DNA of 64,000 bases from Hydrogenophaga sp. (GTDB taxonomy: Bacteria; Pseudomonadota; Gammaproteobacteria; Burkholderiales; Burkholderiaceae_C). A program made the position numbers and the translations under genes. The stretch lies in NCBI RefSeq assembly GCF_041913525.1, contig NZ_JAYSFD010000002.1, positions 5,186 through 69,185 on the forward strand. The letters run 5' to 3'. Positions within the stretch are counted from its first letter, which is position 1, and each line of letters starts with the position of its first letter. Under the pieces are notes generated by a model, which saw only the letters and a program-made list of their open reading frames with translations, did not search any database and was not told the origin of the DNA. Positions 20,326 to 53,001 of the stretch are shown here, piece by piece.

Positions 20326-20349
20326 TCCGGTCTCACCCATCGCGCCCCG

Positions 20350-37771: not shown

Positions 37772-38998
37772 ATGTACGTTGACACCACCGAGCGCAAGGC
37801 CGCCACCGGCGCTGCCTTGCCAGTCTTGAAGTCGCGCGCCGACGCCATGGCCGCGGTCAAGGCCCTGCTGCCCAAGATCCGGGCACGCGCCGCCCGCACC
37901 GACGCCGACCGCATGGTCTCGCGCGAAACCATTGCCGAAATCATGGAAGCCGGCCTGTTCGGCGTGGGCACGCCCACCGAACACGGTGGCTCCAACCTGG
38001 GCTTTGCCGCCCTGGTGGAAGTGACCACCGAACTGGCCAGCGCCTGCGGCTCCACCGGCTGGGTGTTCGGCGTGCTGGCCGGCCATAGCTGGATCCTGAA
38101 CTTCTTCCCGCAGGAAACCCAGGCCGAGGTGCACGCCAACGGCCGCTCGCTGTCGGCCACCGTGTTCCGCCTCAATGGCGAAGCCGTGGTGGAAGGCGAC
38201 GCCATTCGCCTGACCAACGCCGAAGGCCGCTTCTGCAGCGGCGTGGACCACGCCAGCTGGGTCGTGGTGGGCGTGCCGGTGAAGGCCGCCGATGGCAGCA
38301 TGGCGCCGCACTTCCTGATCGTGCCGCGCTCGGACATCGAGGTGGTGGACGACTGGTTCACCGCCGGCATGCGCGGCACCGGCAGCCGCACCATCAAGAT
38401 CAAAGACTCGCTCGTGCCCCGTGCGCGCGCCCTGTCGTTCAAGGACATGGGCGTGGTGGCGGCGGCCGAGGCCAAGCGCACCGGCAAGCCCATCCTGGGC
38501 GTGCCATGGACGGCCGTTCTGCCTTTCTCGCTGATCGGTGCCCCCATGGGCATGGCCCGTGGCACCCTGGCCAACTTCGTGGAAGGCGCGGCTGCGCGCA
38601 TGTCCACCTTCAGCGAGCTGCAACTGGCCGAGCAGTCGGCCACGTTTGCGCGCCTGTCCGAGGCCGCCGCCGACCTGGACGCCGCTTACGCCCTGGTGCT
38701 GGCCAACGCCCAGTTCTGCGATGAGATCCAAGACCCGTCGGAAATCACCTCGCTCAAGGCCTCGCAGATCGCCCGCGACTGGGCCTGGGCCGCGCAGAAG
38801 TCGCGCTACGCCGCCACCCGCCTGTTCGAGGCGGCCGGTGGCACCGGCATCTACGACTCGTCCGAGATGCAGCGCCTGTGGCGCGACGTGAACTCGGCCG
38901 CGCAGCACTTCGCCTTCACCTGGGACGGCGCCATGGCCATCCACGGCCGCGCCCTGCTGGGCCTGGCGCCCGCCAAGTTCGGGGTCAAGGGCCGATGA
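37772..38998 (+). CDS. ACAD-fold two-component flavin-dependent monooxygenase (group D, HsaA/C2-HpaH-like)
   Basis: 408 aa with an acyl-CoA dehydrogenase-like fold but monooxygenase-type sequence (…GMRGTGSRTIKI…). A partner flavin reductase candidate lies at 29273-29830. Confidence 0.8.
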   Translation: MYVDTTERKAATGAALPVLKSRADAMAAVKALLPKIRARAARTDADRMVSRETIAEIMEAGLFGVGTPTEHGGSNLGFAALVEVTTELASACGSTGWVFGVLAGHSWILNFFPQETQAEVHANGRSLSATVFRLNGEAVVEGDAIRLTNAEGRFCSGVDHASWVVVGVPVKAADGSMAPHFLIVPRSDIEVVDDWFTAGMRGTGSRTIKIKDSLVPRARALSFKDMGVVAAAEAKRTGKPILGVPWTAVLPFSLIGAPMGMARGTLANFVEGAAARMSTFSELQLAEQSATFARLSEAAADLDAAYALVLANAQFCDEIQDPSEITSLKASQIARDWAWAAQKSRYAATRLFEAAGGTGIYDSSEMQRLWRDVNSAAQHFAFTWDGAMAIHGRALLGLAPAKFGVKGR

Positions 38999-39345
38999 GC
39001 GCGGCACTGCTGGCCGGCGGCGTGGATGCCCGCGCCGACGAGCTTCACGACATCCTCGACTGCGGCCCGGCCACGCTGCGGGCCCTGGCCCTGCGCATCG
39101 AGGCCTCGGCGGGCGACATGGAGCTGATCTACCGCGAGACCGAGATCGACGAGGTCTGGCGCTGGGTGGACGTGGGCCTGGGCCAGGCCCAGCACGTGCG
39201 CGCCGCGCCGGCCGTGATCGCGCACTGGCGCCAACTCAAGGCCGAGGTCATGCGCATTCACGACCTGATCGGCATTGACCTGGACCGCGACACCGCGGTG
39301 CAGGCCCTGCGGTCCCTGGCCACCCAACTCGAATCGGCGGCCTGA
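38995..39345 (+). CDS. 116-aa hypothetical protein, translationally coupled
   Basis: The ATG overlaps the upstream stop (ATGA). Acidic and helical-looking. I recognise no family. Confidence 0.6.
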   Translation: MSAALLAGGVDARADELHDILDCGPATLRALALRIEASAGDMELIYRETEIDEVWRWVDVGLGQAQHVRAAPAVIAHWRQLKAEVMRIHDLIGIDLDRDTAVQALRSLATQLESAA

Positions 39346-39395
39346 ACCGGCCACCGGCACCCCACCCGTTTCCCCATTTTTCCAAGGAGAGAGAG

Positions 39396-40646
39396 ATGCT
39401 TTCGAAAGAAGACAACGACATCCTGACCCAAACCGGTCAAGGCACGCCCATGGGCGATCTGGTTCGCCGCTTCTGGGTTCCGGCCCTGCTGGCCTCTGAA
39501 GTGGCCGAGGCCGACGGCGCCCCCAAGCGCTTTCGCCTGCTGGGCGAAGACCTGATCGCCTTCCGCAACACCGACGGCAAGGTCGGCATTCTGGAAGAGG
39601 CCTGCCCGCACCGCCGCTCCTCGCTGGCCCTGGGCGTGAACGCCGAGAACGGCGTGCGCTGCCTGTACCACGGCTGGAAGTTCGGCATCGACGGCGAGTG
39701 CCTGGACACCCCGGCCGAGCCGCCCGGCGCCAGCATGGTGGGCCGCGTGCGCGCCAAGTCGTACCCGGTGCGCGAAGTGGCCGGCGTGATCTGGACCTAC
39801 ATGGGCCCCGCCGAACACGAGCCCGTGTTCCCCGACTTCGAGTGGATGCACTACCCCGAAGGCCACTGCGTGCCCTTCAAGGTGCTGGAAGACTGCAACT
39901 ACGCGCAGGCCGTGGAAGGCACCATCGACTCGGCCCACGCCGGCGTGCTGCACCGCGAAAGCCCCTGGGGCCACCCCGCCAAGTACGAGCACGAGAAAGA
40001 CCTCTCGCCCAAGCTCGAAGTGGAATACACCAAGTACGGCCTGCGCTACGGCGCCGTGCGCAACCTGGTGGACGAGGGCAAACTGCACGCCCGCGTGACC
40101 GAAGTGGTGATGCCCTTCTTCACCCTGATCCCGCCGGACGGCGCCGGCGTTCGCAAGAACCGCCGCATGGCCAACGCCTTCGTGCCGCGCGACGACGAGT
40201 CCACCTGGCACATCCAGTGGTTCTTCGACGACACCACCCCCATTGACGTGGAGTACCGCATCAAGGAAGGCGGCCACTACGTGGACGAAAACTTCCGCAA
40301 GCTGCGCAACATCGACAACTGGTACCTGCAAGACCGCCAGATGATGAAGACGACCAACATGTCGGGCATCGAAGGCATCTTGATGCAGGACCACGCCGTG
40401 AGCGAGACGCAGGGCCGCATCCTGGACCGCACCAAGGAACACCTGGGTGGCTCCGACGTGGCCGTGGTCGCCTGGCGTCGCCAGATGATTCGCGCCGCGC
40501 GCAACTTCGCCAAGGACGGCACCACCCCGTCCGTGCTGGGTGCCGACGTGCCGTGGTCGAAGATCCGCGCCGCCACCGTGCGCTTCCCCGACTCCAGCAA
40601 CTGGAAGGCCGAGGTGCCCCTGCACCCCGAAGCCGCGGCGACCTGA
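39396..40646 (+). CDS. Rieske [2Fe-2S] non-heme iron oxygenase, alpha subunit (phthalate/VanA-type, single-component)
   Basis: 416 aa. Rieske motif CPHRRSSL...CLYHGWKF, and mononuclear Fe motif region NYAQAVEGTIDSAHAGVLH. Confidence 0.92.
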   Translation: MLSKEDNDILTQTGQGTPMGDLVRRFWVPALLASEVAEADGAPKRFRLLGEDLIAFRNTDGKVGILEEACPHRRSSLALGVNAENGVRCLYHGWKFGIDGECLDTPAEPPGASMVGRVRAKSYPVREVAGVIWTYMGPAEHEPVFPDFEWMHYPEGHCVPFKVLEDCNYAQAVEGTIDSAHAGVLHRESPWGHPAKYEHEKDLSPKLEVEYTKYGLRYGAVRNLVDEGKLHARVTEVVMPFFTLIPPDGAGVRKNRRMANAFVPRDDESTWHIQWFFDDTTPIDVEYRIKEGGHYVDENFRKLRNIDNWYLQDRQMMKTTNMSGIEGILMQDHAVSETQGRILDRTKEHLGGSDVAVVAWRRQMIRAARNFAKDGTTPSVLGADVPWSKIRAATVRFPDSSNWKAEVPLHPEAAAT

Positions 40647-40671
40647 TCGCCATCGTCCGCCCTTGCTGACC

Positions 40672-40699
40672 GCCGGCCCGCTAACGCGGGCCGGCTTTT
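40672..40699 (+). terminator. GC-rich hairpin + T4 immediately upstream of the next gene
   Basis: gccggcccg-ctaa-cgcgggccggc then TTTT. It ends 13 nt before ATG 40713. Confidence 0.6.
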
Positions 40700-40712
40700 G
40701 CCCCCAAAGCCC

Positions 40713-41513
40713 ATGGTCATTGACAGCCACTGCCACACCGGCGACCGCTGGTACGAACCCGTCGACACACTCTTGCACCACATGGACCGCCATGGCGTCT
40801 CACGCGCCATGCTCATCCAGATGCTGGGCCAGTTCGACAACGGCTACCAGCAAGACAGCGTGCAACGCCACCCCGATCGTTTCGTGAGCGTGGTGGGCGT
40901 GGACCTGTCTCGCGCCGACGCCTGCGACGAACTGGAGCGCCAGGCCGCACAAGGGGCGGTGGGCGTGCGCCTGCGCCCCACCGACCGCTCGCTGGGCGAT
41001 GACCCGCTGGCCATCTGGCGGGCGGCCGAGCGCCTGGGGCTCTTGGTCAGTTGCGTGGGCAACAGCGCCACCTTTGGCGACCCCGCCTTCGACGCACTGG
41101 TGGCCCAGTTTCCCCGGCTCACCATCGTGCTGGAGCACCTGGGCAGCAACAGCAGCCCCGACGCCGATGCCGCCGCCGTGGCCGCGCGCCAGCGCGTGTT
41201 CGGCCTGGCGCGCCATGCCCATGTGTGCATCAAGCTGCCCGGGCTGGGCGAGCTGTTGGCGCGACCTGCCTTGATGGCGGCCGACCCGTTCACCCTGGCC
41301 GCCGTGGCGTCGCCGGTGCTGCGCCCGGCCTTCGAGGCCTTTGGCCCCGAGCGCCTGCTGTGGGGCAGCGACTTCCCCGTGGTGTCCTCGCGCGAAGGCT
41401 ATGGCCAGGCACTGGGCCTGTGCCGTGAGGTGGTGCGCCAGCTCTACCCACAGGCCGTTGATGGCGTGTTCGGCGGCAACGCGCAGACCCTGTTGGCGCG
41501 CCAATCGCGCTGA
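40713..41513 (+). CDS. Amidohydrolase-2 family metal-dependent hydrolase
   Basis: Start at ATG 40713 (MVIDSHCH; the ORF-track start at 40698 is TTG). C-terminal LLWGSDFP motif. Confidence 0.85.
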   Translation: MVIDSHCHTGDRWYEPVDTLLHHMDRHGVSRAMLIQMLGQFDNGYQQDSVQRHPDRFVSVVGVDLSRADACDELERQAAQGAVGVRLRPTDRSLGDDPLAIWRAAERLGLLVSCVGNSATFGDPAFDALVAQFPRLTIVLEHLGSNSSPDADAAAVAARQRVFGLARHAHVCIKLPGLGELLARPALMAADPFTLAAVASPVLRPAFEAFGPERLLWGSDFPVVSSREGYGQALGLCREVVRQLYPQAVDGVFGGNAQTLLARQSR

Positions 41514-41560
41514 GCCAGGGCGCTATTCTTTCGATAACAAATTCCAACGGAGACACGTCA

Positions 41561-42898
41561 GTGAACACCACCACCTCACCCGCCGCGATCAACCCCTCGC
41601 AGGTGATCAACGATCACCCGCTGGGTACCTACCAGAAGCTGGTGGTGCTGCTCATCGTGCTGGTCTTCATCATGGACGGCGTGGCCAACACCGTGCTGCC
41701 GGTGGCCATTCCCGCGCTCATGAAAGAGTGGGGCCTCAGCCGCGACCCGTTCAAGTTCGTGGTGGGCGCCGGCCTCATGGGCGTGGCCCTGGGCGCGGTG
41801 CTGGGTGGCTACCTCTGCGACAAGTTCGGCCGCCGCCGCGCGCTCATTGGCTGCGTGGTGCTGTTCGGCAGCATGACCGCGCTGTCGTCCCTGGTGGCCA
41901 ACATCGAGCAGCTCATGCTGGTGCGCGTGCTCGACGGCCTGGGCATTGGCGGCGCCATTCCCGCCGGCATGGCCCTGTTGTTCGAGTCGATGCCGGTGCG
42001 CCGTCGCAGCATCGCCATCGCCGCCAGCATGGTGGGCATTCCGCTGGGGGGCTTCCTGGCCGGTGGCCTGGCCTCGCTGGTGCTCGAATCGCACGGCTGG
42101 CACACCCTGTTCCTGCTGGGGGGCCTGGGCCCATTGCTGCTGGCCGCCGTGCTGGCCGCGCTGCTGCCCGACTCGCCCGCCCACCTGGCCCTGCACCCCG
42201 AACGCAGCGACGAGCTGCGCCGCCTGATGGCCCGCTACGGCCACGAATTCGCACCCGGCACCCCCTTCGTGGGCGAAGGCCGCACCGGCCCCAAGGCGCG
42301 CCTGCGCGACCTGTTCAACACCGAGTTCTGCCGCAGCACCGTGCTGCTGTGGTCGGCCTTCTTCTTCTGCTTCATCTCCAGCTACAGCATGTTCAGTTGG
42401 GGCCCGGTGATGATGATGGGCCAGGGCCTGAGCCCCATGACCATGGGCCTGGGCATCTCGGTCTTCAACGTGGGCGGCGTGGTGGGCGGCCTGGCCAGCG
42501 GCTGGGTGCTGCAGCGCTTCGGTTCGCGCCTGGCCTTCTTGCTGTACTGCGGCGGCGGCATGGCCAGCGCCATGTCCTGCGCGGTGGCCTTTCAGTACAA
42601 CGCCCAGGTGGCGGCCTTCACCATGCCCAGCCTGGCGGCCTTCGGCTTCTTCACCGCCGGCCTGCTCAACCTCACCTACACCATGGGCGCCAACCTCTAC
42701 CCGCCCTACATCAAGGGCACGGGCCTGGGCGCGGGCGCCGGCATGGGCCGCATTGGTGCGGTGGTGAGCGCCTTCGCCGGCGTGGCCGCGCTGAACCTTG
42801 GCGCCGCCATGGGCTTCTTCGTGGTCATCACCATCGCCCTGTTCATCACCCTGGTCTCGGCCCTGGCCATCCGCCAGCAGATGGCCCGCGTGGCCTGA
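41561..42898 (+). CDS. MFS transporter, aromatic acid:H+ symporter (AAHS, PcaK-like) family
   Basis: GTG start. 445 aa, 12 TM. GYLCDKFGRRR loop 2-3 motif and LRVLDGLGIGG. Confidence 0.88.
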   Translation: MNTTTSPAAINPSQVINDHPLGTYQKLVVLLIVLVFIMDGVANTVLPVAIPALMKEWGLSRDPFKFVVGAGLMGVALGAVLGGYLCDKFGRRRALIGCVVLFGSMTALSSLVANIEQLMLVRVLDGLGIGGAIPAGMALLFESMPVRRRSIAIAASMVGIPLGGFLAGGLASLVLESHGWHTLFLLGGLGPLLLAAVLAALLPDSPAHLALHPERSDELRRLMARYGHEFAPGTPFVGEGRTGPKARLRDLFNTEFCRSTVLLWSAFFFCFISSYSMFSWGPVMMMGQGLSPMTMGLGISVFNVGGVVGGLASGWVLQRFGSRLAFLLYCGGGMASAMSCAVAFQYNAQVAAFTMPSLAAFGFFTAGLLNLTYTMGANLYPPYIKGTGLGAGAGMGRIGAVVSAFAGVAALNLGAAMGFFVVITIALFITLVSALAIRQQMARVA

Positions 42899-42937
42899 TG
42901 CCCCCGCCGTTTTCTCACGATTCGATCGCACCCTCGC

Positions 42938-43792
42938 ATGAAACTCTTTGACTCGCACGCCCACCTCGTTTCGGCCGACTTCGACCGCTACCCCGTCTCG
43001 CCCCTGTCGGGCGAACTTGACCGCAAGCTCGACAACCCCGTCACCGCCGAGGTGCTGCTGGGCCTGATGGACGAGCAGGGCGTCGAGCGCGCCTGCGCCG
43101 TGCAGCGCGCCCACGTCTATGGCTACAACAACGCCTACGTGATCGACTCGGCCAAGCGCCACGCCGACCGCCTGGTGGCCGTGTGCGTGATCGACGCCGC
43201 CGCCGCCGACTCTGCCGCCACCGTGGCCCGCTGGGCCGACGAAGGCGCCGTGGGCATGCGCCTGTCGGAGAAGACCAAAGGGCAGGGCACCGGCTGGCTC
43301 GATTCCGACAACGCCCAGCGCGCCTGGGAAGCCGTGGAGCGCCTGGGCCTGTCGATGTGCGTGCACATGTACCGCTGGAACCGCCAGGAAGTGCTGCGCA
43401 GCCTGCTGGTGCTGGCCCAGCGCTTCCCCAAGGTGCCCCTGGTGCTGGACCACCTGTCCAACCCCATCGAGGAAAGCGGTGCGCCCGACTACGGCGTGGA
43501 CGCCGACCTGCTGGCGCTCAAGCCGCTGGCCAACGTCTACCTGAAGTACTCGCACATCAACCTGGCGCGCATGGCCAAGAACGGTGTGAACAGCGCCGAC
43601 GTGCTGCACCGCGTGCTGCAAGACTTCCCGGCCGAGCGCGTGATGTGGGGCTCTGACGTGGCCCAGTCCGCCGGCACCTACGACGAAATGGTGGGCGCCG
43701 CCCGGGCCGCCACCGCCAAGCTCTCGCCCGAGCAGGTGCAGGCCGTGCTGCGTGGCACCGCCGAGGCGGTGTACGGCGCGCGCTGGCGCTGA
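42938..43792 (+). CDS. Amidohydrolase-2 family hydrolase (LigI-type lactonase-like)
   Basis: 284 aa. MKLFDSHAHL at the N-terminus, LVLDHL and VMWGSD motifs. Confidence 0.82.
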   Translation: MKLFDSHAHLVSADFDRYPVSPLSGELDRKLDNPVTAEVLLGLMDEQGVERACAVQRAHVYGYNNAYVIDSAKRHADRLVAVCVIDAAAADSAATVARWADEGAVGMRLSEKTKGQGTGWLDSDNAQRAWEAVERLGLSMCVHMYRWNRQEVLRSLLVLAQRFPKVPLVLDHLSNPIEESGAPDYGVDADLLALKPLANVYLKYSHINLARMAKNGVNSADVLHRVLQDFPAERVMWGSDVAQSAGTYDEMVGAARAATAKLSPEQVQAVLRGTAEAVYGARWR

Positions 43793-43808
43793 TCGGGGCC
43801 CGGGCGCC

Positions 43809-45203
43809 ATGGCTGGGCATTCCCCGCCACCGGGCGCGGCCGTTCACGACGGGCTGAAAGGCCGCCGGCGCTGGTTCAGCACCCTGGCCATCGTGCTGGG
43901 CGTGGTGATGACGGTGCTGGCCAATGCCACCACCTACGTGGCCTTGCCCTCCATGGCCCGGTCGCTGGGCGTGGACGCCGGCGTCACCGTCTGGGTCGTC
44001 AACCTCTACCTGCTGGCCACCGTGGTGGCCTTGCTGCCGCTGGCGGCCTGGGGCGACACGCGCGGGCATCGCCGCGTGTTCATGGCCGGCCTGGCGCTGT
44101 TTGCCGCCGCCACCGTGCTGGCCGCCTTGTCGGCCCGCACGCCCTGGCCGCTGCCCACGCTGCTGCTGGCCCGCGCCTTGATGGGCCTGGGCGCCGCCGG
44201 GGTGATGGCCACCTGCATGGCCTTGCTGCGCGCCACCCACCCCAGCCACCGCCTGGGCCGGTTCATCGGCCTCAATGGCATGGCAGTGGCGGCGGCCAAT
44301 GCCGCCGGCCCCAGCGTGGCCGGGGCGGTACTGGCCTGGTCGAACTGGGAAACGCTGCTGGCGCTGCTGCTGGTGCCCGCCGCCGCCACGGCCGCGCTGG
44401 GCTGGCGTTCGCTGCCGCGCAACCCGGTGCTGCGCGAGGCGGCCGTCGATCCGCTGGGTGCCGTGCTTCAGGGCGCGGCCTTTGCTTCTTTGGTGCTGGT
44501 GCTCACGCCGCTGGCCGGTGCCTGGCGCTGGCCCCTGTGCGCGCTGGGCCTGGCCCTGGGGGCGGCGTTCGTGCTGCGCGAGCGCCAGCGGGGCTTTGCG
44601 CTGCTGCCGCTGGATTTGCTCAAGCGGCCCTTGTTCGCGGCCTCTTTCACCGCTGCCTACGCCTGCTTCGTGGCCCAGGTGCTGGCCATGGTGTGCCTGC
44701 CCTTTTTGCTGCAAGGCCGCCTGGGCCTGGGGCCGGGCGCCACTGGCCTGGCCATCACGCCCTGGCCCCTGGCGGTGATGGTCACCGCCCCGCTGGCGGG
44801 GGCCTTGTCCGACCGGGTGTCCACCGCCTGGCTGGGCAGCACCGGCCTCTTGCTGGCCGCGGCGGGGCTGGTGTCGCTGGCCTGGTTGCCCGGCACCGCC
44901 ACCGCGCTGGACGTGGCCTGGCGCATGGCCCTCACCGGCGCCGGCTTTGCCTTGTTCAGCGGCTCGAACGTGCGCGCCCTGATGGCGGCCACGCCGGTGG
45001 AGCGCAGCGGCGCGGTGGGCGGCATGCACGCCATCTCGCGCCAGAGCGGCCAACTGGTGGGCGCCGCACTCGGTGGCCTGGTGCTCAGCCCGGCCGGTTG
45101 GGCCGGTGCCGCCGACCGCGGTTTGCTGCTGGCGGCGCTGATGTCGGGGCTGGCGGCCGTGGCCTGCGGCTTCAAGTCGCGCGACAGCCGGGGCCGTTCA
45201 TGA
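43809..45203 (+). CDS. MFS transporter (DHA-type, about 14 TM)
   Basis: Start at ATG 43809 (MAGHSPPPG). Hydrophobic throughout, with WGDTRGHRRVF loop 2-3 motif. Confidence 0.8.
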   Translation: MAGHSPPPGAAVHDGLKGRRRWFSTLAIVLGVVMTVLANATTYVALPSMARSLGVDAGVTVWVVNLYLLATVVALLPLAAWGDTRGHRRVFMAGLALFAAATVLAALSARTPWPLPTLLLARALMGLGAAGVMATCMALLRATHPSHRLGRFIGLNGMAVAAANAAGPSVAGAVLAWSNWETLLALLLVPAAATAALGWRSLPRNPVLREAAVDPLGAVLQGAAFASLVLVLTPLAGAWRWPLCALGLALGAAFVLRERQRGFALLPLDLLKRPLFAASFTAAYACFVAQVLAMVCLPFLLQGRLGLGPGATGLAITPWPLAVMVTAPLAGALSDRVSTAWLGSTGLLLAAAGLVSLAWLPGTATALDVAWRMALTGAGFALFSGSNVRALMAATPVERSGAVGGMHAISRQSGQLVGAALGGLVLSPAGWAGAADRGLLLAALMSGLAAVACGFKSRDSRGRS

Positions 45204-45350: not shown

Positions 45351-45766
45351 GGAGACCTGCCATGTTTTCGATTCGCCAACTGGTGCAAGCCGCTGCGGTG
45401 GCCGCGCTGACCCTGGGCACGGTGGCCGTGCACGCCCACCACTCGCCCGCCGCGTGGGAGATCACCAAGCGCAACAGCGTCACGGGCGTGGTGAAGGACG
45501 CGTCGTTCCGCAACCCGCACGGGCAGATCACGCTGGCGGTGACCAACGAGCAAGGGCAGACGGAAGAGTGGCGCGTGGAGACCAGCGCGGCCAACCTGCT
45601 GCGCCGCCGTGGCTGGGACTTCTCCAAGGTCACGCCGGGTTTGAAGATCCGCGTGGTGGGGCACCTGAACAAGGAGCAGCCGCGCGAGATTTACATCCGC
45701 GAGATCCACTTTGAAGACGGCACGGTCTTTGGCGACAAGGGCGGCAATGACGCCGCGCTCGACTGA
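45351..45766 (+). repeat. Dispersed duplicate, copy 1 (RBS + whole small-protein gene)
   Basis: Five mismatches over 416 bp versus 50483-50898, including a 378-bp perfectly identical run (45370-45747). Confidence 0.95.
45362..45766 (+). CDS. Small secreted protein, predicted mature N-terminus HHS... (I recall this as DUF6152-like), copy 1
   Basis: 134 aa. Signal MFSIRQLVQAAAVAALTLGTVAVHA|HHSPAAWE. RBS GGAGA. Confidence 0.8.
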   Translation: MFSIRQLVQAAAVAALTLGTVAVHAHHSPAAWEITKRNSVTGVVKDASFRNPHGQITLAVTNEQGQTEEWRVETSAANLLRRRGWDFSKVTPGLKIRVVGHLNKEQPREIYIREIHFEDGTVFGDKGGNDAALD

Positions 45767-45818
45767 TCCGCTCTGCTTCGACGCTTTCTTTTTCGATTCA
45801 CAACAGGAGACACCCCCC

Positions 45819-46583
45819 ATGATTTCTCGCCTGCCTTTCAAGCGCGCCCTGGCCGTGCTGGCCTCCACCGTGGTCCTGGCGGCCTGCAGCTCGGTGCCGC
45901 AGTCGCCCTCGTCGTCTGAAGCCCTGGGTGGCAAGCCCAACTTCAACGGTGTGTGGGAAATGCTCGACATGGCCAAGGTGGTTCGCCCCGAGCAAGGCAC
46001 GCCGCCGTACACGCCCGAGGCCGCCAAGGTGGCCGCCGAGTTCAAGTCGTGGGACCCCAAGAAAGACGATCCCTCGCTGTACTGCGACCTCAAGGGCATG
46101 CCCTGGATGATGCTGTCGCGCGCCCGCACCTACCCGGCCGAGATCTACCAGACCGCCGAGCGCGTTGACGTGTTCTTCGAGCTGTTCGACACCTCGCGCA
46201 GCATCCGCGTGAACGGCAAGCCCGCGCCCAAGAACATCTCGCCCAGCATCAACGGCTACTCCACCGCCACCTGGGACAACGACACCCTGGTCATCAAGAC
46301 CACCGCCCTGGCCGAGCGCCTGTACCCGAGCCCGCAACTGCGCTCGGAAAAGGCCGAACTCACCGAGCGCTGGAAGATGGTGAAAGACCCGAAAGAGGGT
46401 GACCTGATCGAGATCGACTTCGAGATCGTGGACCCGGTGGTCTACACCCGCCCGGTCAAGGGCAAGCAGGTGTTCAAGCGCGCCGCACCCGACGTGGTGG
46501 TGGCCAGCTACAACTGCCCCGAGAAGCTGTGGCTCAAGCACGTGGACGACCGCCGCGCCCAGGGCAAAGCCGCCGCCAAGTAA
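45819..46583 (+). CDS. Lipoprotein of unknown function (paralog of 35435-36214)
   Basis: Start at ATG 45819 after AGGAGA. Lipobox VVLAAC. Shares motifs with the paralog. Confidence 0.8.
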   Translation: MISRLPFKRALAVLASTVVLAACSSVPQSPSSSEALGGKPNFNGVWEMLDMAKVVRPEQGTPPYTPEAAKVAAEFKSWDPKKDDPSLYCDLKGMPWMMLSRARTYPAEIYQTAERVDVFFELFDTSRSIRVNGKPAPKNISPSINGYSTATWDNDTLVIKTTALAERLYPSPQLRSEKAELTERWKMVKDPKEGDLIEIDFEIVDPVVYTRPVKGKQVFKRAAPDVVVASYNCPEKLWLKHVDDRRAQGKAAAK

Positions 46584-46600
46584 ACCCGCCTGTGTTGACC

Positions 46601-46634
46601 AGCCGCGCCTCACCCGGGGCGTGGCTTTCTGTTT
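46601..46634 (+). terminator. Hairpin + T-rich tail
   Basis: agccgcgcc-tcacccgg-ggcgtggct then ttctgttt. Confidence 0.55.
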
Positions 46635-46646
46635 GAGAGCATCCCC

Positions 46647-47480
46647 ATGAGCCAAGCCCCTGTTTCCCCCGTCAACGTGTCCCGCCGCCGTGGCCTGGTG
46701 GGTGCCGCCCTGGCCGCCGTGGCCGCCCCGCTGGTGAGCACGCCGGCCCAGGCCCAGCCCGCCGCTGGCGCCAAAAAAACCTTTGTGCTGCTGCCCCCCG
46801 CCTGGGCCGGCAGCTGGATCTACACCAAGACCGCCGACTGGCTGCGCGCGCAAGGCCATGTGGTCTACACCCCCACGCTCACCGGCCTGGCCGAGCGCGC
46901 CCACCTGCTGCGCCCCGACGTGAACATGGACACCCACGTGCAAGACGTGGTGAACCTCATCAAGTGGGAAGAGCTGAGCAACGTGGTGCTGGTGGGTCAC
47001 TCCTTCACCGGTGGCGTGGTCAGCGGCGTGGCCGAGAAGGTGCTGGACAAGCTGGCCTCGGTGATCTTCGTGAACGCCTACGTGCACGAAAACGGCGCCT
47101 CCATCCAGGACTACCTGAGCCAGCGCTCGCACGCCGACATCGACGCCCGCCTGGCCAAGGGCGAGCTGGGCCTGCCCAACCCGCCAGCGGCTTTCTATGC
47201 CCTGCCGCAGAAAGAGTGGGCGCGCATCGACGAGCTGCACACCCCGCACCCGCTGGGCGCCATCGTGCAGAAGCTCAAGCTCACCGGCGCGGTGGAGCGC
47301 GTGCCCAAGAAGACCTACATCATGCTGGCGCAGTTCGCGCGTGGCCGCGACTACGAGCTCAAGCACTTCAACCGCGTCAAGGGCCAGCCGGGCTGGAACA
47401 CCGTCTCGGTGGAGAAGGGGCACCTGCCCATGGTGGACGACCCGGTGGGCTTCGCCCAGTTGCTGCTGCAAGCCGCCTGA
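46647..47480 (+). CDS. Tat-exported alpha/beta-hydrolase (esterase, SABP2/methylesterase-like)
   Basis: Twin-arginine signal SRRRGLVGAALAAV...AQA. Nucleophile elbow GHSFTG. C-terminal His region GHLPMVD. Confidence 0.82.
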   Translation: MSQAPVSPVNVSRRRGLVGAALAAVAAPLVSTPAQAQPAAGAKKTFVLLPPAWAGSWIYTKTADWLRAQGHVVYTPTLTGLAERAHLLRPDVNMDTHVQDVVNLIKWEELSNVVLVGHSFTGGVVSGVAEKVLDKLASVIFVNAYVHENGASIQDYLSQRSHADIDARLAKGELGLPNPPAAFYALPQKEWARIDELHTPHPLGAIVQKLKLTGAVERVPKKTYIMLAQFARGRDYELKHFNRVKGQPGWNTVSVEKGHLPMVDDPVGFAQLLLQAA

Positions 47481-47494
47481 CCGGGAGCGACGCG

Positions 47495-47824
47495 ATGAAC
47501 CTCTTCCGACTCGCCACCTTCGCTGCCCTCTTCGGCGCCGCCGCGGCCGCCCAGGCCCAGACCGAGGCCGACGCCCTGTTCGCCAACAAGATCTGCTTCG
47601 CCTGCCACAGCGTCACCAAGGCCGACTTCAAGCGCATCGGCCCCTACGTGGTGGACATCAAGGCCAAGTACCAGGGCCAGGCCGACGCCCGCGCTTACCT
47701 CAAGGACAAGATCCTGCGCGGCAGCGCCGGGGTGTGGGGCCCGGCCGAGAGCTCGGTGATGCCCGCCAACAAAGTGACCGACGCCGAGGCCGACCTGCTG
47801 GCCGGCTGGATCCTCACCCAATAA
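47495..47824 (+). CDS. Class I monoheme cytochrome c (c551/c552-like)
   Basis: Start at ATG 47495. Signal peptide, CFACH heme motif, and a distal Met in SVMPAN. Confidence 0.88.
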   Translation: MNLFRLATFAALFGAAAAAQAQTEADALFANKICFACHSVTKADFKRIGPYVVDIKAKYQGQADARAYLKDKILRGSAGVWGPAESSVMPANKVTDAEADLLAGWILTQ

Positions 47825-47833
47825 GCCCAGGCC

Positions 47834-49399
47834 ATGACACTCCCCCCAAAGCTCAGTGCGCGCGATTTCACGCGTGCGGTGGCCGAGTTGCGCTCCATCG
47901 TGGGCGCCGACTGGGTGTTCACCGAAGAAGACGACCGCCAGGCCTGGCGCGACCCCATGTTCCCGGGCGACGCGCGCCGCGTGGACCTGTCGGCCGCGGT
48001 GGCCCCCGCCACCGTGCAAGAGGTGCAGGCCGTGGTGAAGGTGGCCAACCGCTACCGCCTGCCGCTGTGGCCGGTGTCCACGGGCAAGAACTACGCCTAC
48101 GGCGGCGCCTCGCCCGCGCTGAAGGGCACCATCGTGCTCGACCTCAAGCGCATGAACCGCATTCTTGAGGTCAATGAGCAATACGGCTACGCCATCGTCG
48201 AGCCCGGCGTCACCTACTTTGACCTGTACCGCCACATCAAGGCCAAGGGCCTGAAGCTGTGGATCGACTGCCCCTCGCCAGGCTGGGCCAGCGTGCTGGG
48301 CAACGCCATGGAGCGCGGCCTGGGCAACACGCCCTACAGCGACCACGCCGCGCAACAGTGCGGCATGGAAGTGGTGCTGCCCACCGGCGACCTGGTGCGC
48401 ACCGGCATGGGCGCCATCGAGAACAGCCCGCTGTGGGGCCTGCAGAAAAACCCCTTCGGCCCCACCTTCGACGGCATGTTCATGCAGTCCAACCTGGGCA
48501 TCGTCACCAAGATGGGCATCTGGCTCATGCCCGAGCCCGAGGTGTTCGCGCAGTGCAACATCCGCCTGCAGCGCGAAGACGCCCTGGGCCCCATGATCGA
48601 CGCCCTGCGCCCGCTGCGCCTGAACGGCACCATCCAGAACCCGGCCAGCGTGCGAAGCTGGATCGGCATGCTGCTGGGCCAGGCCGCCAAGAAAGAGGTG
48701 CACGACGGCCCCGGCGCCATTCCGCGCGAACTGGTGCCGCAGATCCTGCAGCAGCGCAACCTGTCGTGGTGGAGCACTGGCTTCTCGCTCTACGGTTACG
48801 AAGAGGTGGTGGAGGCCAACCTCAAGGTGGTGCGCAAGGCCCTGGGCAGCGTGCCCGGCGCCGAGGCGCTATCGGTGCGCAAGTCGGCCGGCGACAAAGT
48901 GCCCGACAGCGCCGGCACGCAGGCCGGCGTGCCCAGCCTGGGCGCGTTCTCCACGCTCAACTGGCCAGGCGGGCGCGGCTCGCACCTCGATTTCTCGCCG
49001 GTGTACGAGCCCAGCGGGGCCGTGGCCATGGCCGAGTACCAGTTCATGCGCGAGCTGTTCGAGCGCCACGGCTTTGACTTCCCCGCCACCTACTCGATTA
49101 CCTCGCCGCGCTACATGGCCTGCGTCACGCCCATCATGTTCGACGCCGACAACCGCCAGCAGGCCGAGGCCGCCGGGCGCCTGTTCCTGGAGGCCCACCA
49201 GCACCTGGGCACCAAGGGCTATGGCCTGTACCGCGCCCACGTGGCCTTCATGGACCAGGTGCAGCAGGCGCAAGGCTTCAACCAGCACGCGCTGCGCCGC
49301 CTGAGCGAGCGCATCAAGGATGCGCTGGACCCGCAAGGCATCCTGGCACCCGGCAAACAAGGCATCTGGCCCAAGGCCATGAAAGGGGGCCGTGCATGA
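47834..49399 (+). CDS. PCMH/VAO-family FAD flavoprotein subunit (p-cresol methylhydroxylase PchF / 4-alkylphenol hydroxylase-like)
   Basis: 521 aa with an FAD_binding_4 N-terminal domain (LWPVSTGKNYAYGG) and a VAO-type cap and C-terminus. Confidence 0.88.
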   Translation: MTLPPKLSARDFTRAVAELRSIVGADWVFTEEDDRQAWRDPMFPGDARRVDLSAAVAPATVQEVQAVVKVANRYRLPLWPVSTGKNYAYGGASPALKGTIVLDLKRMNRILEVNEQYGYAIVEPGVTYFDLYRHIKAKGLKLWIDCPSPGWASVLGNAMERGLGNTPYSDHAAQQCGMEVVLPTGDLVRTGMGAIENSPLWGLQKNPFGPTFDGMFMQSNLGIVTKMGIWLMPEPEVFAQCNIRLQREDALGPMIDALRPLRLNGTIQNPASVRSWIGMLLGQAAKKEVHDGPGAIPRELVPQILQQRNLSWWSTGFSLYGYEEVVEANLKVVRKALGSVPGAEALSVRKSAGDKVPDSAGTQAGVPSLGAFSTLNWPGGRGSHLDFSPVYEPSGAVAMAEYQFMRELFERHGFDFPATYSITSPRYMACVTPIMFDADNRQQAEAAGRLFLEAHQHLGTKGYGLYRAHVAFMDQVQQAQGFNQHALRRLSERIKDALDPQGILAPGKQGIWPKAMKGGRA

Positions 49400-49839
49400 A
49401 CGCCCGCTTGCTGAACCGCGCGGCCACCCTGGTCGTCCTTTCGCTGGGCCTGCTCGCCACCAGCGCCCAGGCCGATGGCCCGGCCCCGGCGGCAGCCGCC
49501 GCCCCGGCCGCGCCAGTGGCCGCCCCGGTGCCTGAGAACCTCACGCCCGCCCAGGCCGAAGGCCGCCAGTTGTATGGCGTGCACTGCATCTACTGCCACG
49601 GCGCCGGCCCCGGCCGTGCCGGCACCACCGCGCTGGCCCGCCGCGTGGGCAAAGACCGCGCCGTGCTGGAAGCGCGCGACGACCTGGACCGCGCCTACGT
49701 GCAGTACGTGGTGCGCCATGGCCTGAACGCCATGCTGCCGCTGCGCCGCACCGAACTCACCGACGCCGAACTGGGCCGCATCGTTGACTGGCTGCAGCGC
49801 CCTCGCGCGGCGCAGACGGCCTCGGGGGCCAAACCATGA
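49396..49839 (+). CDS. Cytochrome c subunit (PchC-like) of the flavocytochrome
   Basis: ATGA overlap with the flavoprotein gene. Signal peptide, Ala/Pro linker, and CIYCH heme motif. Confidence 0.85.
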   Translation: MNARLLNRAATLVVLSLGLLATSAQADGPAPAAAAAPAAPVAAPVPENLTPAQAEGRQLYGVHCIYCHGAGPGRAGTTALARRVGKDRAVLEARDDLDRAYVQYVVRHGLNAMLPLRRTELTDAELGRIVDWLQRPRAAQTASGAKP

Positions 49840-50264
49840 GCGACCGCCGCCAGTTCCTCGGCCTGGCCGCCGCCAGCGCCGCCACCGGCGGCTGGCTGGC
49901 CGGCCCGGCGCACGCCAGCGCCTCGGCCTTGCCCCAAACCCCGGCCTCGCCTGAGCCCGTGCACTGGTGGGTGGACGCCCGGCGCCCGGTGGCGCTTCAG
50001 GCGGTGCAGCGTCTGGCCCGCTTGGGCGAGCCGGTGCACGCCTTGCCCGCCCGCCTGGCGCCCGATTGGGCCGCCGCACGGCTGGCCCAGGCGCAGGCCG
50101 AGGGCGCGGCGGTGGCCGGCGTGGCTTCCATGGCCGACGCCTTTGTGCTGCGCCAGCTCGCCCTGGACGCCGGCTGGCGCATCGCCGCCTTGCAGGTGGC
50201 GCCCGCCAGTGCGAACAGCCCGGCCCTGGTGTCGTGGCGCTTTCAGTCGCCGCCCCAGGCATGA
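49836..50264 (+). CDS. Tat-signal protein of unknown function
   Basis: ATGA overlap. MSDRRQFLGLAAASAATGGWLAGPAHA twin-arginine signal. 142 aa. Confidence 0.65.
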   Translation: MSDRRQFLGLAAASAATGGWLAGPAHASASALPQTPASPEPVHWWVDARRPVALQAVQRLARLGEPVHALPARLAPDWAAARLAQAQAEGAAVAGVASMADAFVLRQLALDAGWRIAALQVAPASANSPALVSWRFQSPPQA

Positions 50265-50346
50265 CCGCCTGAACCCACCGCCGCCGCGGCGCACGCCGGC
50301 CAAGGCCGCTCCGTTCGCTGTGGCCATTTTTTCGCCCCTGCTTAAA

Positions 50347-50357
50347 TTGCCTAGCAA
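50347..50357. promoter_or_regulatory. TTGCCTAGCAA quasi-palindrome, site c
   Basis: 137 nt upstream of small-protein copy 2. TATCTT lies 16 nt after TTGCCT. Confidence 0.6.
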
Positions 50358-50482
50358 CTATAGCTAATTATCTTGGTATAAATACCGATGCCCCATGGGG
50401 TTATGCGGCCCTACCATTGGTTCATGGCTGATGCCTCTTGGCGAAGCCACCTGCCTGCTTTCCCGTTTTCGATTCCACACAA

Positions 50483-50898
50483 GGAGACCTGTCATGTTTT
50501 TGATTCGCCAACTGGTGCAAGCCGCTGCGGTGGCCGCGCTGACCCTGGGCACGGTGGCCGTGCACGCCCACCACTCGCCCGCCGCGTGGGAGATCACCAA
50601 GCGCAACAGCGTCACGGGCGTGGTGAAGGACGCGTCGTTCCGCAACCCGCACGGGCAGATCACGCTGGCGGTGACCAACGAGCAAGGGCAGACGGAAGAG
50701 TGGCGCGTGGAGACCAGCGCGGCCAACCTGCTGCGCCGCCGTGGCTGGGACTTCTCCAAGGTCACGCCGGGTTTGAAGATCCGCGTGGTGGGGCACCTGA
50801 ACAAGGAGCAGCCGCGCGAGATTTACATCCGCGAGATCCACTTTGAAGACGGCACGGTCTTTGGCGACAAGGGCGGCAACGACGCCGCGCTGGATTGA
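50483..50898 (+). repeat. Dispersed duplicate, copy 2
   Basis: See 45351-45766. Confidence 0.95.
50494..50898 (+). CDS. Small secreted HHS-N-terminus protein, copy 2
   Basis: Start at ATG 50494 (MFLIRQLV). 134 aa, differing from copy 1 only at residue 3 (S/L). Confidence 0.8.
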   Translation: MFLIRQLVQAAAVAALTLGTVAVHAHHSPAAWEITKRNSVTGVVKDASFRNPHGQITLAVTNEQGQTEEWRVETSAANLLRRRGWDFSKVTPGLKIRVVGHLNKEQPREIYIREIHFEDGTVFGDKGGNDAALD

Positions 50899-51395
50899 TG
50901 GGCGAACGGCACTTTTTCCTGGCGCCGCTGCTGGGCGCCCTGGCGCTGTCGGGCACCGCGTCGATGGCGGCCGAAGACCTGGACAAGGGCGTGGAACCCG
51001 TGGGCCCGGCCAACTACCGCCCCGCTGAAACCCGCCTGCGCAGCGACACCGTGAAGCTGGTGCTCAAGCCCGAGGAACAGGTGGAGGTGAAGACCCTGCT
51101 GGCCGAAGGCCAGGTCATCACCTACCAGTGGACCAGCAAGGGCGCCAAAGAGGGCGAGCTGTACGTGGACTTCCACGGCCACACCCTGCCGCCGCCGGGC
51201 CAGAAAGAGCGCGTGGTGCGCTACGCCGAAGGCGAGCACACCGCCGGGCGCGGCGCCATCGTGGCGCCCCTCACGGGTGAGCACGGCTGGTTCTGGCTGA
51301 ACATGGGCACCAAGCCCGTGACGATCGAGTTGCGCGTCAGCGGCTTCCACACCAAGGTCGAACAACACCGCATCCAGACGCCAGGCAAGTCCTGA
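50898..51395 (+). CDS. Secreted beta-rich protein of unknown function
   Basis: The ATG overlaps the upstream stop (TGATG). Signal LAPLLGALALSGTASMA. 165 aa. Contains DFHGH and GEHGWFWLN motifs. Confidence 0.7.
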   Translation: MGERHFFLAPLLGALALSGTASMAAEDLDKGVEPVGPANYRPAETRLRSDTVKLVLKPEEQVEVKTLLAEGQVITYQWTSKGAKEGELYVDFHGHTLPPPGQKERVVRYAEGEHTAGRGAIVAPLTGEHGWFWLNMGTKPVTIELRVSGFHTKVEQHRIQTPGKS

Positions 51396-51558
51396 CCGCG
51401 CCCTTTCGATTCGATTGCTCCAAGGTGGCTCGCCGGTTGCCCTGCGCAACCGGGCATTGCTGCTCACCCGGGTGGCCCAGACCGGGTGTTCGTTTCGCCA
51501 CATGGGCCCATCGGCCCGTGTGGCGTCTTTTTTGTCACAACCCACAAGAGGTGAGACC

Positions 51559-53001
51559 GTGTTTCTCCCAAGCATTCCCACGCCCTTGCTGAGCGCCATT
51601 CGCCGCTCGCTGGGTGCGCTGGCCGTGGCCAGCCTGTCGGCCACCGCCTTCGCCCAGGGCGCCGCCGTGCCCGCCGCCCCGGCCAAGGCCCAGTTGTGCG
51701 CCAGTTGCCACGACGGTGGCGTGAAGATGGGCACGCCGCCCGTGAACGTGCCCAAGCTGGTGCGCCAGCAGTCCGACTACATCCACACCGCGCTGCACCA
51801 GTTCCGCAGCGGCCAGCGCAAGAACGAGACCATGCAGGCCATCGCGGCCGGCCTGAGCGACCAGGACATCCGCGAACTGGCCGACCACTTCGGCGGCGTG
51901 CGCCCCCTGCCGGTGCGCATGCCCGAGGGCATGGTGATGCCCAAGGTGGTCAAGCAGGTGTGCGAGAACTGCCACGGCATGACCGGCGTGGCCTCGCTGC
52001 CCGAGACGCCCATCATCGGTGGCCAGCACCGCGACTTCCTGCGCGTCACGCTGGAGAACTTCCGCAATGGCCAGCGCCACAGCACGGTGATGAGCCCCAT
52101 CGCCCAGATGCTGAGCGACGAAGACATCCGCGTGGTGGCCGAGTACTACGAGACGGTGCACAACTACTTCGTGCCGCCCACGGCCAAGGAAATCGAGCAG
52201 GCCGCCCAGTCGAACCTGGCCGTCTCGGGCCCGGTGACGCTGGTGAAGCACCAGCCGACCAAGCCCCAGAGCGCGGCCGAGCAGAAGAAGGCCGCCCTGG
52301 CCATTGCCGCCTCGCTGGAGATGGTGACCCTGCCGGCCGGCAACTTCCTGATGGGCAGCCCCGCCGACGAGGGCGACGCCCCCGGCCTGCCGCGCCATAC
52401 GGTGACGCTCAAGTCCTTCAAGATGGCCAAGAACATGGTCACCTTTGACCAGTTCGACGCCTACTCTAAGGCCACCGGCCGGGCCCTGGTGAACGACGGC
52501 GGCATGAAGCGCGGCAACTACCCGGTGATCAACATCACCATGGGCGAGTCGCAGGCCTTCATCGACTGGCTCAACCGCCACACCGGCCGCCGCTTCAAGG
52601 TGCCCAGCGAGTCCGAGTGGGAATACGCCGCCCGCGCCGGCACCACCACGCACTACTGGTGGGGCGACAAGGTGGACTTCGGCAAGTACAACTCCTTCCG
52701 CAACGAAGGCGCCGACATCTGGCCCACCACCTCGCCCGTGGGCGCCTTCCCGCCCAACCCCTGGGGCCTGCACGACATGACCGGCAATGTGTTCCAGCGC
52801 GTCTCCGATTGCCGCCGCCCCACCTACGACGGCAAGCCCACCGATGGCAGCCCGGTGGTGGGCGAGCCCTGCCTGCTCAAGACCATGCGCGGTGGCTCGT
52901 GGCGCAACCTCAGCGGTGCCGCCCGCCACGCCACCCGCAGCGGCGTGACCGACGAGCTGATCAGCACCTCCATCGGCCTGCGCGTGGCCGAAGACCTCTG
53001 A
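51559..53001 (+). CDS. Fusion protein: diheme cytochrome c4-like N-terminus + FGE-sulfatase (SUMF1/EgtB/PvdO) domain
   Basis: Probable GTG start at 51559 after AAGAGG (ATG 51502 is an alternative). Signal peptide. CASCH and CENCH heme motifs with c4-type spacing. FGE motifs SESEWEYAARAG, NPWGLHDMTGNVFQ and MRGGSW. Confidence 0.85.
   Translation: MFLPSIPTPLLSAIRRSLGALAVASLSATAFAQGAAVPAAPAKAQLCASCHDGGVKMGTPPVNVPKLVRQQSDYIHTALHQFRSGQRKNETMQAIAAGLSDQDIRELADHFGGVRPLPVRMPEGMVMPKVVKQVCENCHGMTGVASLPETPIIGGQHRDFLRVTLENFRNGQRHSTVMSPIAQMLSDEDIRVVAEYYETVHNYFVPPTAKEIEQAAQSNLAVSGPVTLVKHQPTKPQSAAEQKKAALAIAASLEMVTLPAGNFLMGSPADEGDAPGLPRHTVTLKSFKMAKNMVTFDQFDAYSKATGRALVNDGGMKRGNYPVINITMGESQAFIDWLNRHTGRRFKVPSESEWEYAARAGTTTHYWWGDKVDFGKYNSFRNEGADIWPTTSPVGAFPPNPWGLHDMTGNVFQRVSDCRRPTYDGKPTDGSPVVGEPCLLKTMRGGSWRNLSGAARHATRSGVTDELISTSIGLRVAEDL

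Follow-up and report, generated by a model that had tools for sequence, protein, structure and literature searches.

We analysed a 64,000-nucleotide stretch of Hydrogenophaga sp. DNA (contig NZ_JAYSFD010000002.1; hereafter the window), focusing on a gene whose product joins a diheme cytochrome c4-type module to a domain of the formylglycine-generating enzyme (FGE)-sulfatase family. The c4-FGE fusion is real and under selection, because independent assemblies and divergent orthologs share the architecture. Judged from sequence comparisons, its cytochrome appears to represent a dedicated c4 subfamily that is found only with one clade of FGE-fold domains. We tentatively propose that the c4 and FGE-fold parts constitute a periplasmic substrate:cytochrome-c oxidoreductase unit in clusters for aromatic uptake and catabolism, probably acting on lignin-derived phenolics; we rate this reading at somewhat below an even chance.

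Architecture and conservation of the fusion protein

The gene and the regions of its product occupy the following positions:
51559..53001, forward strand: c4-FGE fusion gene, 480 amino acids plus stop, starting at GTG, ribosome-binding site AAGAGG 8 nt upstream
51559..51654, forward strand: Sec-type signal peptide read from the sequence, MFLPSIPTPLLSAIRRSLGALAVASLSATAFA, with the predicted cleavage site before QG
51673..52170, forward strand: diheme cytochrome c4-type module (Pfam, PDB match, ortholog alignment)
~52159..52314, forward strand: linker HNYFVPPTAKEIEQAAQSNLAVSGPVTLVKHQPTKPQSAAEQKKAALAIAAS, ~50 amino acids, rich in Ala, Gln, Lys and Pro, with variable, gapped alignment columns and a low predicted local distance difference test (pLDDT) score
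52306..52998, forward strand: FGE-sulfatase (PvdO-like) domain (Pfam, PDB, ortholog alignment)

The enclosing open reading frame (ORF) spans 51415..53001 on the forward strand and is continuous in frame. We set the true start at the GTG at 51559, because AAGAGG lies upstream and an ATG aligns with this position in the ortholog from locus L005 (78% identity). Attachment of c-type heme needs export, for which the signal peptide would provide. Pfam matched Cytochrome_CBB3 twice in the heme half, and a PDB sequence search aligned residues 38-201 with the cytochrome c4 structure 6q2u (E 5e-17). The first heme site consists of CASCH at 51697-51711 (C47xxC50H51) with the distal Met92 (51832-51834), and the second of CENCH at 51961-51975 (C135xxC138H139) with the distal Met178 (52090-52092). 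FGE-sulfatase (PF03781) was matched with E 2.9e-40 over profile positions 4-254 of 255. A preliminary description of this DNA, made from the sequence alone, had reported an exported 480-residue protein with two c4 heme modules, a linker and a complete FGE domain; this was borne out, including all four FGE motifs that it quoted. An AlphaFold2 model of the fusion, built with 14 sequences, reached a pLDDT of 56, with FGE residues 358-473 below 50, and was left out of the fold search.

The preliminary description had also raised the concern that a frameshift or assembly error might have joined two genes, and this was excluded. Gene calling gave the identical 480-residue product on 9 independent contigs. 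RefSeq WP_409638742.1 (Hydrogenophaga sp.) is among the 39 members of its cluster, and two more metagenome assemblies carry the product at 99-100% identity. In thirteen orthologs (40-83% identity), the FGE domain, both distal Met and exactly two CxxCH motifs are preserved, and the linkers are of similar length. When these were aligned with the window protein (14 sequences), both CxxCH motifs and both Met (M92 and M178) were invariant, as were more than 60 positions of the FGE domain. Taxon names obtained from protein-cluster look-ups were Hydrogenophaga sp. and Caballeronia sordidicola only. In favour of an artificial fusion, the two genes do exist split elsewhere. Against it stand the continuous frame, the independent assemblies and the divergent fused orthologs, by which it is already refuted; we assign it practically no probability.

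Fused and split forms and their gene contexts

At loci L007, L093 and L095, a gene for a diheme cytochrome of 206-219 amino acids overlaps the start of a gene for an FGE protein of 272-287 amino acids, and these cytochromes matched a hidden Markov model (HMM) of the fused c4 module with E 1e-51 to 1e-57. Reading frames at L098, L099 and L103 gave c4 and FGE as separate abutting genes, and further split pairs were found at L171-L175. Overall, the c4 proteins of the split pairs measure ~200-219 and the FGE proteins ~270-287 amino acids (L007, L093, L095, L098, L099, L103, L171 and L174). The domain order at L106 and on four short contigs suggests split pairing too. The split FGE proteins carry signal peptides or lipoprotein signal peptides of their own.

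The exclusiveness of the pairing was approached from both sides. Using only the c4 module as seed, we obtained 75 loci from a metagenome scan. An FGE domain lay directly downstream at 12 of these, all 12 with a c4 score of at least 113 bits against the family HMM, and at none of the remaining 63; the score ranges overlap at the low end (loci lacking FGE reach 138 bits, at L111) and leave no clean threshold, and the two lowest-scoring positives, L142 and L156, are truncated by the end of their contigs. To check c4 adjacency from the FGE side, we took as negative control a GTDB full-length-alignment scan whose matches were listed on the generic PSE[SA]EWEY motif; those listed comprised generic FGE only, with no match over the full length. 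The dedicated c4 stood beside none of the 80 species-genome FGE loci among the matches listed.

In a neighbour-joining tree, fused and split FGE domains came out as a single clade, in which the fused P0018 is nested between split ones. Clustered at 90% identity, the standalone FGE proteins (~260-290 amino acids) retrieved by a profile search with the split members make up ~70 clusters, and the search also gave more fused forms (P0403, P0409, P0418, P0426 and P0436). Two extra fused clusters, P0195 and P0185, came from an HMM search of the representative library that was dominated by giant multi-FGE proteins. The recurrence of this partnership, fused and split, speaks for electrons passing to or from the FGE-fold part, which would be favoured as the redox partner because the pairs share no other redox enzyme. 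The preliminary description had proposed a heme-wired FGE-fold oxidoreductase linked in an operon to the genes upstream. Of this proposal, the genuine, exported and conserved fusion and the specific partnership of the FGE clade with a dedicated diheme c4 hold up, and the operon link is weak (see the last section).

The conserved context of the c4/FGE loci appears, from the annotated neighbours, to be aromatic catabolism. An MFS transporter adjoins the unit in the window and at L094, L096, L007, L098, L099, L103 and L174, and esterases or alpha/beta hydrolases occur in the window and at L094, L006, L093, L095 and L174. L098 encodes a LigB ring-cleavage dioxygenase, another FAD_binding_4 flavoprotein with cytochrome c, and a pyrroloquinoline quinone (PQQ)-type quinohemoprotein dehydrogenase; L093 and L007 encode GMC oxidoreductase, Aldedh, SDR, Lactamase_B and Amidohydro_2 proteins. 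Regulators of the GntR/FCD type are present at L094, L005, L007 and L171. Directly upstream of the split pair at L099, L171 and L174, and beside the pair at L095, stands a gene for Meth_synt_2 (MetE-like), with a gene for a PETase/PHB-depolymerase-like esterase between Meth_synt_2 and the pair at L174; Meth_synt_2 and c4/FGE thus seem to form a conserved operon core. Genes of the VAO type stand near only 3 of ~15 c4/FGE contexts.

Two other cytochromes came to light alongside these searches. Proteins that combine a DUF2282 domain (Cys-rich, bufferin-like), a monoheme cytochrome c and an FGE-sulfatase domain (P0037 and P0056), found outside the window, occupy a separate branch of the tree and are apparently an independent, unrelated cytochrome-FGE fusion. 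Within the window, a further diheme c-type cytochrome, unrelated to the first, is encoded by an ORF at 20320-21024 on the forward strand; it has two CxxCH motifs, matches the c4 HMM weakly (E 1e-07) and has no FGE domain nearby.

Relatives of the FGE-fold domain and its candidate role

The preliminary description had listed Cu-dependent FGE and Fe-dependent EgtB as family members for comparison and named PvdO only in passing. Comparison with Cu-FGE and with Fe-EgtB was negative in both cases (no Cys pair, no DinB domain), and PvdO proved to be the relevant relative in that list. The location of the catalytic Cys pair in true FGE was taken from established knowledge. In the window protein, the segment downstream of RGGSW reads MRGGSWRNLSGAARHATRSG, and direct inspection for the CxxxxC pair found no Cys there in any of the 14 orthologs. 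The sole cysteines of the domain, C418 and C438, are invariant, align with C224 and C244 of PvdO and probably form a structural pair. Because no Cys lies downstream of RGGSW and the domain holds only C418 and C438, the Cu-binding catalytic Cys pair of true FGE is absent. BLASTP against an approximate C-terminal fragment of human SUMF1 gave no usable alignment. The sulfatase signature [CS]xPxRxxxxTG was found in none of the ORFs of at least 250 amino acids in the 64-kb window. Pfam detected no DinB_2 domain in the fusion protein, whose N-terminal half is cytochrome c, and models of EgtB, OvoA and SenA scored 35-38 bits against cut-offs of 360-420 (TIGR03440, 35 against 360; ovoA_Nterm, 37 against 400).

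These results bear on the idea that the protein is a genuine formylglycine-generating enzyme or an EgtB-type sulfoxide synthase with an extra heme domain. The full-length Pfam FGE-sulfatase match would agree with it, as would the database names 'formylglycine-generating enzyme' and 'SUMF1/EgtB/PvdO family nonheme iron enzyme'. PDB chains of FGE were matched at E 1e-16 to 1e-11, and the fold and the SE(A/S)EWEYA, GNV and RGGS motifs are shared with human SUMF1 (1Y1E) and the Streptomyces coelicolor enzyme (6MUJ). However, the window protein lacks the two Cu(I)-binding catalytic Cys after RGGS, has no sulfatase substrate in the window and carries heme motifs, whereas true FGE uses O2, not a cytochrome. 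EgtB, OvoA and SenA share an FGE-like fold in their C-terminal domain; they differ in being cytoplasmic and in having an N-terminal DinB_2 domain with an iron-binding His triad, which is missing here. With the low EgtB, OvoA and SenA scores and the absent sulfatase signature added, we consider such an enzyme very improbable; the missing Cys pair effectively refutes it.

The best solved match was the Pseudomonas aeruginosa PvdO structure (PA2395, 5HHA), which aligned over the whole FGE domain with E 1e-33. Like the window protein, PvdO has an FGE fold that lacks the catalytic Cys pair of FGE and is destined for the periplasm; it is implicated in a two-electron oxidation. It differs in having no heme domain, in its 37% identity and in its position outside the c4-associated clade in the neighbour-joining tree. 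The best NCBIfam match, NF051459 'dihydropyoverdine dehydrogenase', reached 146 bits against a cut-off of 500. Two swaps are specific to the c4-associated clade: Gln413 replaces the conserved Glu of the GNVWEW motif (E219 of PvdO, in NVYEW), and Gly276 replaces another Glu (E65 of PvdO). A glutamate is reportedly essential to PvdO, and neither of its two plausible candidates is Glu in the window protein: E219 (NVYEW) lies opposite Q413 and, counting along the HMMER alignment to 5hha, E256 (WGEPP) lies opposite N449. No PvdP or pvdMNO pyoverdine genes were found at 37.7-57.7 kb, where the annotated neighbours are catabolic, cytochrome or metal-related, a statement about the neighbourhood only. 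The nearest sequence relatives are FGE domains of kinase, caspase, TIR and trypsin proteins, which at 43-45% identity are nearer than PvdO.

On the heme side, the module resembles cytochrome c4 (P. stutzeri 1ETP, 6Q2U) and FccA (1FCD_C, 3VRD_A) in its two class-I c-type domains, both of which combine CxxCH with a distal Met, and a PDB search returned the flavocytochrome c diheme subunits 3vrd_A and 1fcd_C. In FccAB, the diheme subunit takes electrons from its catalytic partner and feeds the respiratory chain. The partner here differs in being an FGE-fold domain, not a flavoprotein, and this c4 subfamily occurs only with that domain.

Given the observed architecture, export signal, heme motifs, conservation, exclusive c4-FGE pairing and catabolic context, we infer the following scheme, in which catalysis by the FGE-fold domain, the direction of electron flow and the substrate class are all conditional. 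The c4 and FGE modules would act as one periplasmic redox unit, fused in the window and encoded by two translationally coupled genes in many other bacteria. The PvdO-like domain, which lacks both the FGE Cu site and the EgtB Fe site, would bind an easily oxidised small molecule such as a phenol, a hydroquinone, a catechol or a related intermediate. Its two electrons would be taken singly by the His/Met-ligated, probably high-potential c4 hemes, which would hand them to periplasmic carriers and on to terminal oxidases; this route to the respiratory chain is suggested by analogy with the diheme subunits of flavocytochrome c dehydrogenases. The oxidised product could then be imported by the neighbouring MFS transporter. 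As a precedent, periplasmic PvdO is required when a catechol-type ring undergoes a two-electron oxidation; the purified protein contained no cofactor and was inactive, and its electron route is unresolved (PMC6206403).

Several observations weigh against this scheme. We could name no catalytic residue or cofactor site in the FGE domain, and the 14-ortholog alignment revealed no conserved His cluster and no Cys pair beyond C418/C438. PvdO shares only 37% identity and has its place outside the clade, and to our knowledge its activity has never been shown in vitro. The role of CcmC in pyoverdine formation seems separate from cytochrome c biogenesis (reviewed in PMC6206403), so PvdO lends no independent support to a heme partner. 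Domains with the FGE fold often have no catalytic function, examples being those of PorK/GldK, the Tsi3 immunity proteins and sensors linked to kinases. The gene contexts are heterogeneous, and the model of the fusion (pLDDT 56) is too poor for judging the geometry between hemes and groove. A bolder version, in which the FGE fold is the catalytic subunit of an unrecognised class of O2-independent, cofactor-poor periplasmic dehydrogenases that feed c4 from lignin-derived phenolics, and in which the acceptor of PvdO is likewise a c-type cytochrome, we regard as unlikely, if worth stating.

The main rival to a catalytic FGE domain is a non-catalytic one that docks or binds and so tethers the c4 shuttle to another redox enzyme, for example a VAD-type flavocytochrome, a PQQ dehydrogenase or a GMC dehydrogenase. 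The absence of the known FGE and EgtB catalytic features is in line with this, as are the nearest relatives, the FGE domains on kinases, caspases, TIR and trypsin proteins, which are presumed sensors. PorK/GldK (type IX secretion ring), Tsi3 (type VI secretion system immunity), kinase-linked FGE domains and ToxD (7SPQ) share the fold and have no FGE catalytic residues; of these, PorK/GldK and Tsi3 are structural or binding proteins. However, none of these non-catalytic proteins is coupled to a c-type cytochrome, and they serve in secretion, immunity and signalling, whereas the c4/FGE pairs sit in catabolic clusters. Vanillyl alcohol dehydrogenases (VAD) need an endogenous cytochrome c of unidentified nature (PMC7617285), and a VAD-type gene lies in the same operon at L094 and in the window. 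PCMH (1DII) and VAD (8S7P) offer a likeness, namely periplasm-linked phenolic oxidation with a cytochrome c acceptor, and at L094 the VAD-type gene stands directly before the fusion gene; their catalytic subunit is, in contrast, a VAO-fold flavoprotein, so that the relation is one of functional analogy and genomic proximity, not homology. Docking is weakened by the lack of a conserved third partner: VAO-type genes are near so few of the contexts, many pairs stand with only an MFS transporter, Meth_synt_2 or an esterase, and the VAD gene already overlaps a cytochrome c gene of its own (49396-49839). Moreover, such strict one-to-one coupling, with genes that overlap, typifies the subunits of a single enzyme. 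We therefore hold a docking role to be possible yet doubtful. The narrower idea that c4-FGE is the specific acceptor of the VAD flavoprotein was rejected as a general role, since most c4/FGE loci are without a VAO-type gene.

A role in metal handling would draw the upstream genes in: the fusion, DUF6152 (with its N-terminal His), a 165-residue protein with three His and HupE_UreJ_2 would together reduce or deliver periplasmic Cu, Ni or Fe, in the manner of the NirV-like accessory role suggested for other members of the FGE fold. The genes are adjacent in the window, homologs of the 165-residue protein stand beside HupE_UreJ_2 genes and once beside a czcCBA-type efflux system, its three His are invariant in the family, and true FGE, by established knowledge, binds Cu. 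However, in the flanks available, DUF6152 and the 165-residue gene accompany c4/FGE in the Hydrogenophaga-like clade only, a strong terminator separates them from the fusion gene, and the L094 arrangement does without the 165-residue gene. The FGE domain has no Cu-binding Cys pair, and neither a metalloenzyme such as NirK nor any other nitrite reductase or multicopper-oxidase family was present among the Pfam-annotated neighbours of the window gene or the related loci. A metal role thus seems to us quite improbable.

FGE-fold proteins are familiar either as copper or iron enzymes that depend on O2 or as binding modules without catalysis, and we know of no documented electron-transfer partner for any of them. 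Full-text literature searches found no description of a cytochrome c-FGE or cytochrome c-PvdO-like protein, and databases give automatic names only ('SUMF1/EgtB/PvdO family nonheme iron enzyme', 'formylglycine-generating enzyme… /cytochrome c2'), which agrees with the preliminary description, whose author was aware of no characterised example of the architecture. Both domains are known families; their dedicated pairing, the split and fused forms and the catabolic context are undescribed. Constant fusion or translational coupling of one FGE clade to its own two-heme cytochrome would mean that the fold supports a chemistry new to it, namely substrate:cytochrome c oxidoreduction. It would also provide a lead on electron disposal by PvdO-type proteins (PMC6206403) and on periplasmic steps that come before lignin-derived aromatics are taken up by Burkholderiales and soil bacteria. 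The system is valuable for the hypothesis that it raises, a heme-wired FGE-fold oxidoreductase, which can be tested directly, rather than for a function already demonstrated.

Genes around the fusion gene

A catabolic gene set (37772..45203) lies upstream in the window:
37772-38998, forward strand: ACAD-like
39396-40646, forward strand: Rieske/LigXa-like oxygenase
40698-41513, forward strand: Amidohydro_2
41561-42898, forward strand: MFS transporter
42938-43792, forward strand: Amidohydro_2
43752-45203, forward strand: MFS transporter

At L171, a distant locus with a split pair, a similar set stands by c4/FGE (ACAD-like, MFS, LigXa-like, Amidohydro_2, ADH_zinc and Amidohydro_2). In the window, this set is followed by two DUF6152 genes that bracket a 5.1-kb cassette, and then by the 165-residue gene:
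45362..45766, forward strand: DUF6152 copy 1
45711..50264, forward strand: cassette syntenic with L094, between the DUF6152 copies, with a 290-residue lipoprotein as its first gene
46647-47480, forward strand: alpha/beta hydrolase exported by twin-arginine translocation (TAT)
~47495-47824, forward strand: monoheme cytochrome c
47834-49399, forward strand: VAO/PCMH-family flavoprotein, closest to vanillyl alcohol dehydrogenase
49396-49839, forward strand: second cytochrome c
49836-50264, forward strand: 142-residue TAT-signal protein
50494..50898, forward strand: DUF6152 copy 2, 134 amino acids, mature N-terminus HHSPAAW
50898..51395, forward strand: 165-residue exported beta-sandwich protein with motifs YxDFHGH and GxHGW, a clade-specific neighbour of the fusion gene
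51496..51535, forward strand: intrinsic-terminator-like hairpin and U-tract, with a counterpart at L005
54949-55782, reverse strand: HupE_UreJ_2 gene, 3.5 kb downstream of the 165-residue gene, with DUF6488 adjacent

The cassette flavoprotein matched the vanillyl alcohol dehydrogenase of Marinicaulis flavus (8s7p) with E 1.6e-144, and also eugenol oxidase and PCMH. It has no signal peptide, and its gene overlaps (ATGA) that of the exported cytochrome c at 49396-49839. The 142-residue TAT protein could be its hitch-hiker export partner, and the two monoheme cytochromes are candidate natural acceptors, so that the operon would offer such acceptors for the recently described VAD clade (PMC7617285). 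PDB sequence searches with DUF6152, the 290-residue lipoprotein and the 142-residue TAT protein returned no match.

The two DUF6152 copies are part of a duplication that extends from ribosome-binding site to stop at ~99% DNA identity (45350-45775 and 50482-50907, spacing 5132 nt). L094, whose fusion protein is a 70% ortholog, has DUF6152, the cassette and then c4-FGE after a 20-nt gap, with no 165-residue gene. L096 has MFS, a single DUF6152, the 165-residue gene and c4-FGE without the cassette, and shows single-nucleotide polymorphisms of its own; the window and L097 have both cassette and 165-residue gene. This suggests that the cassette may have been gained or lost by recombination between the DUF6152 repeats, because among related strains L097 has the cassette in the locus, L096 does not, and L094 is missing the second DUF6152 copy as well as the 165-residue gene.

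The start of the 165-residue gene overlaps the stop of DUF6152 copy 2 as TGATG. The TGATG coupling and the motifs DFHGH and GEHGWFWLN given for this protein in the preliminary description are correct; its claim that the fusion gene is co-transcribed with DUF6152 and the 165-residue gene finds no support in the sequence, as a strong terminator lies between and the adjacency is clade-specific. The gap between the 165-residue gene and the fusion gene is 163 nt, and the hairpin, a 13-bp G+C-rich stem followed by UCUUUUUUG (dG -27.8 kcal/mol, z = -7), ends 23 nt before the start codon. L005 has a hairpin with a U-rich tail at the equivalent position. A sub-threshold Rfam ctRNA match in the leader region (25.8 bits against 45) was judged to be the terminator hairpin. 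Since the terminator ends so close to the start, expression of the fusion gene must depend on read-through or on a promoter located upstream of this hairpin. Co-transcription with the upstream pair would need read-through and is doubtful; if a promoter lies upstream, the hairpin could possibly act as an attenuator. The region 50340-50390, upstream of DUF6152 copy 2, is AT-rich and contains an extended -10-like TGGTATAAA at 50374-50382; a consensus scan of that region found no full sigma-70 promoter. The -10-like element and the terminator at 51496 suggest that DUF6152 copy 2 and the 165-residue gene may be a self-contained transcription unit.

The available flanks show the DUF6152 and 165-residue families beside c4/FGE only in the Hydrogenophaga-like clade, and they are absent from the other c4/FGE loci. 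Homologs of the 165-residue protein elsewhere (L088, L090 and L092) stand beside HupE_UreJ_2 genes; in one case a czcCBA-type efflux system precedes them, and in one a DUF6152 protein is encoded close by. The protein is modelled as a confident beta-sandwich (pLDDT 82); the family has three invariant His and no Pfam model, and a fold search with the model returned only generic beta-sandwiches (GOLD or jelly-roll) at a template modelling (TM) score of ~0.45. The family may thus be an undescribed periplasmic metal-binding module, and the gene in the window looks like a metal-related module that landed beside the fusion gene rather than a partner of it. The 165-residue and 290-residue proteins were compared for kinship and are unrelated.

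Downstream, and convergent to the fusion gene, 53047-53907 on the reverse strand encodes a 286-residue protein that consists of a TAT-type signal and Cache domains (sCache_2/dCache_2) only, with no transmembrane or output domain. This protein is kept in the close relatives L001-L004.

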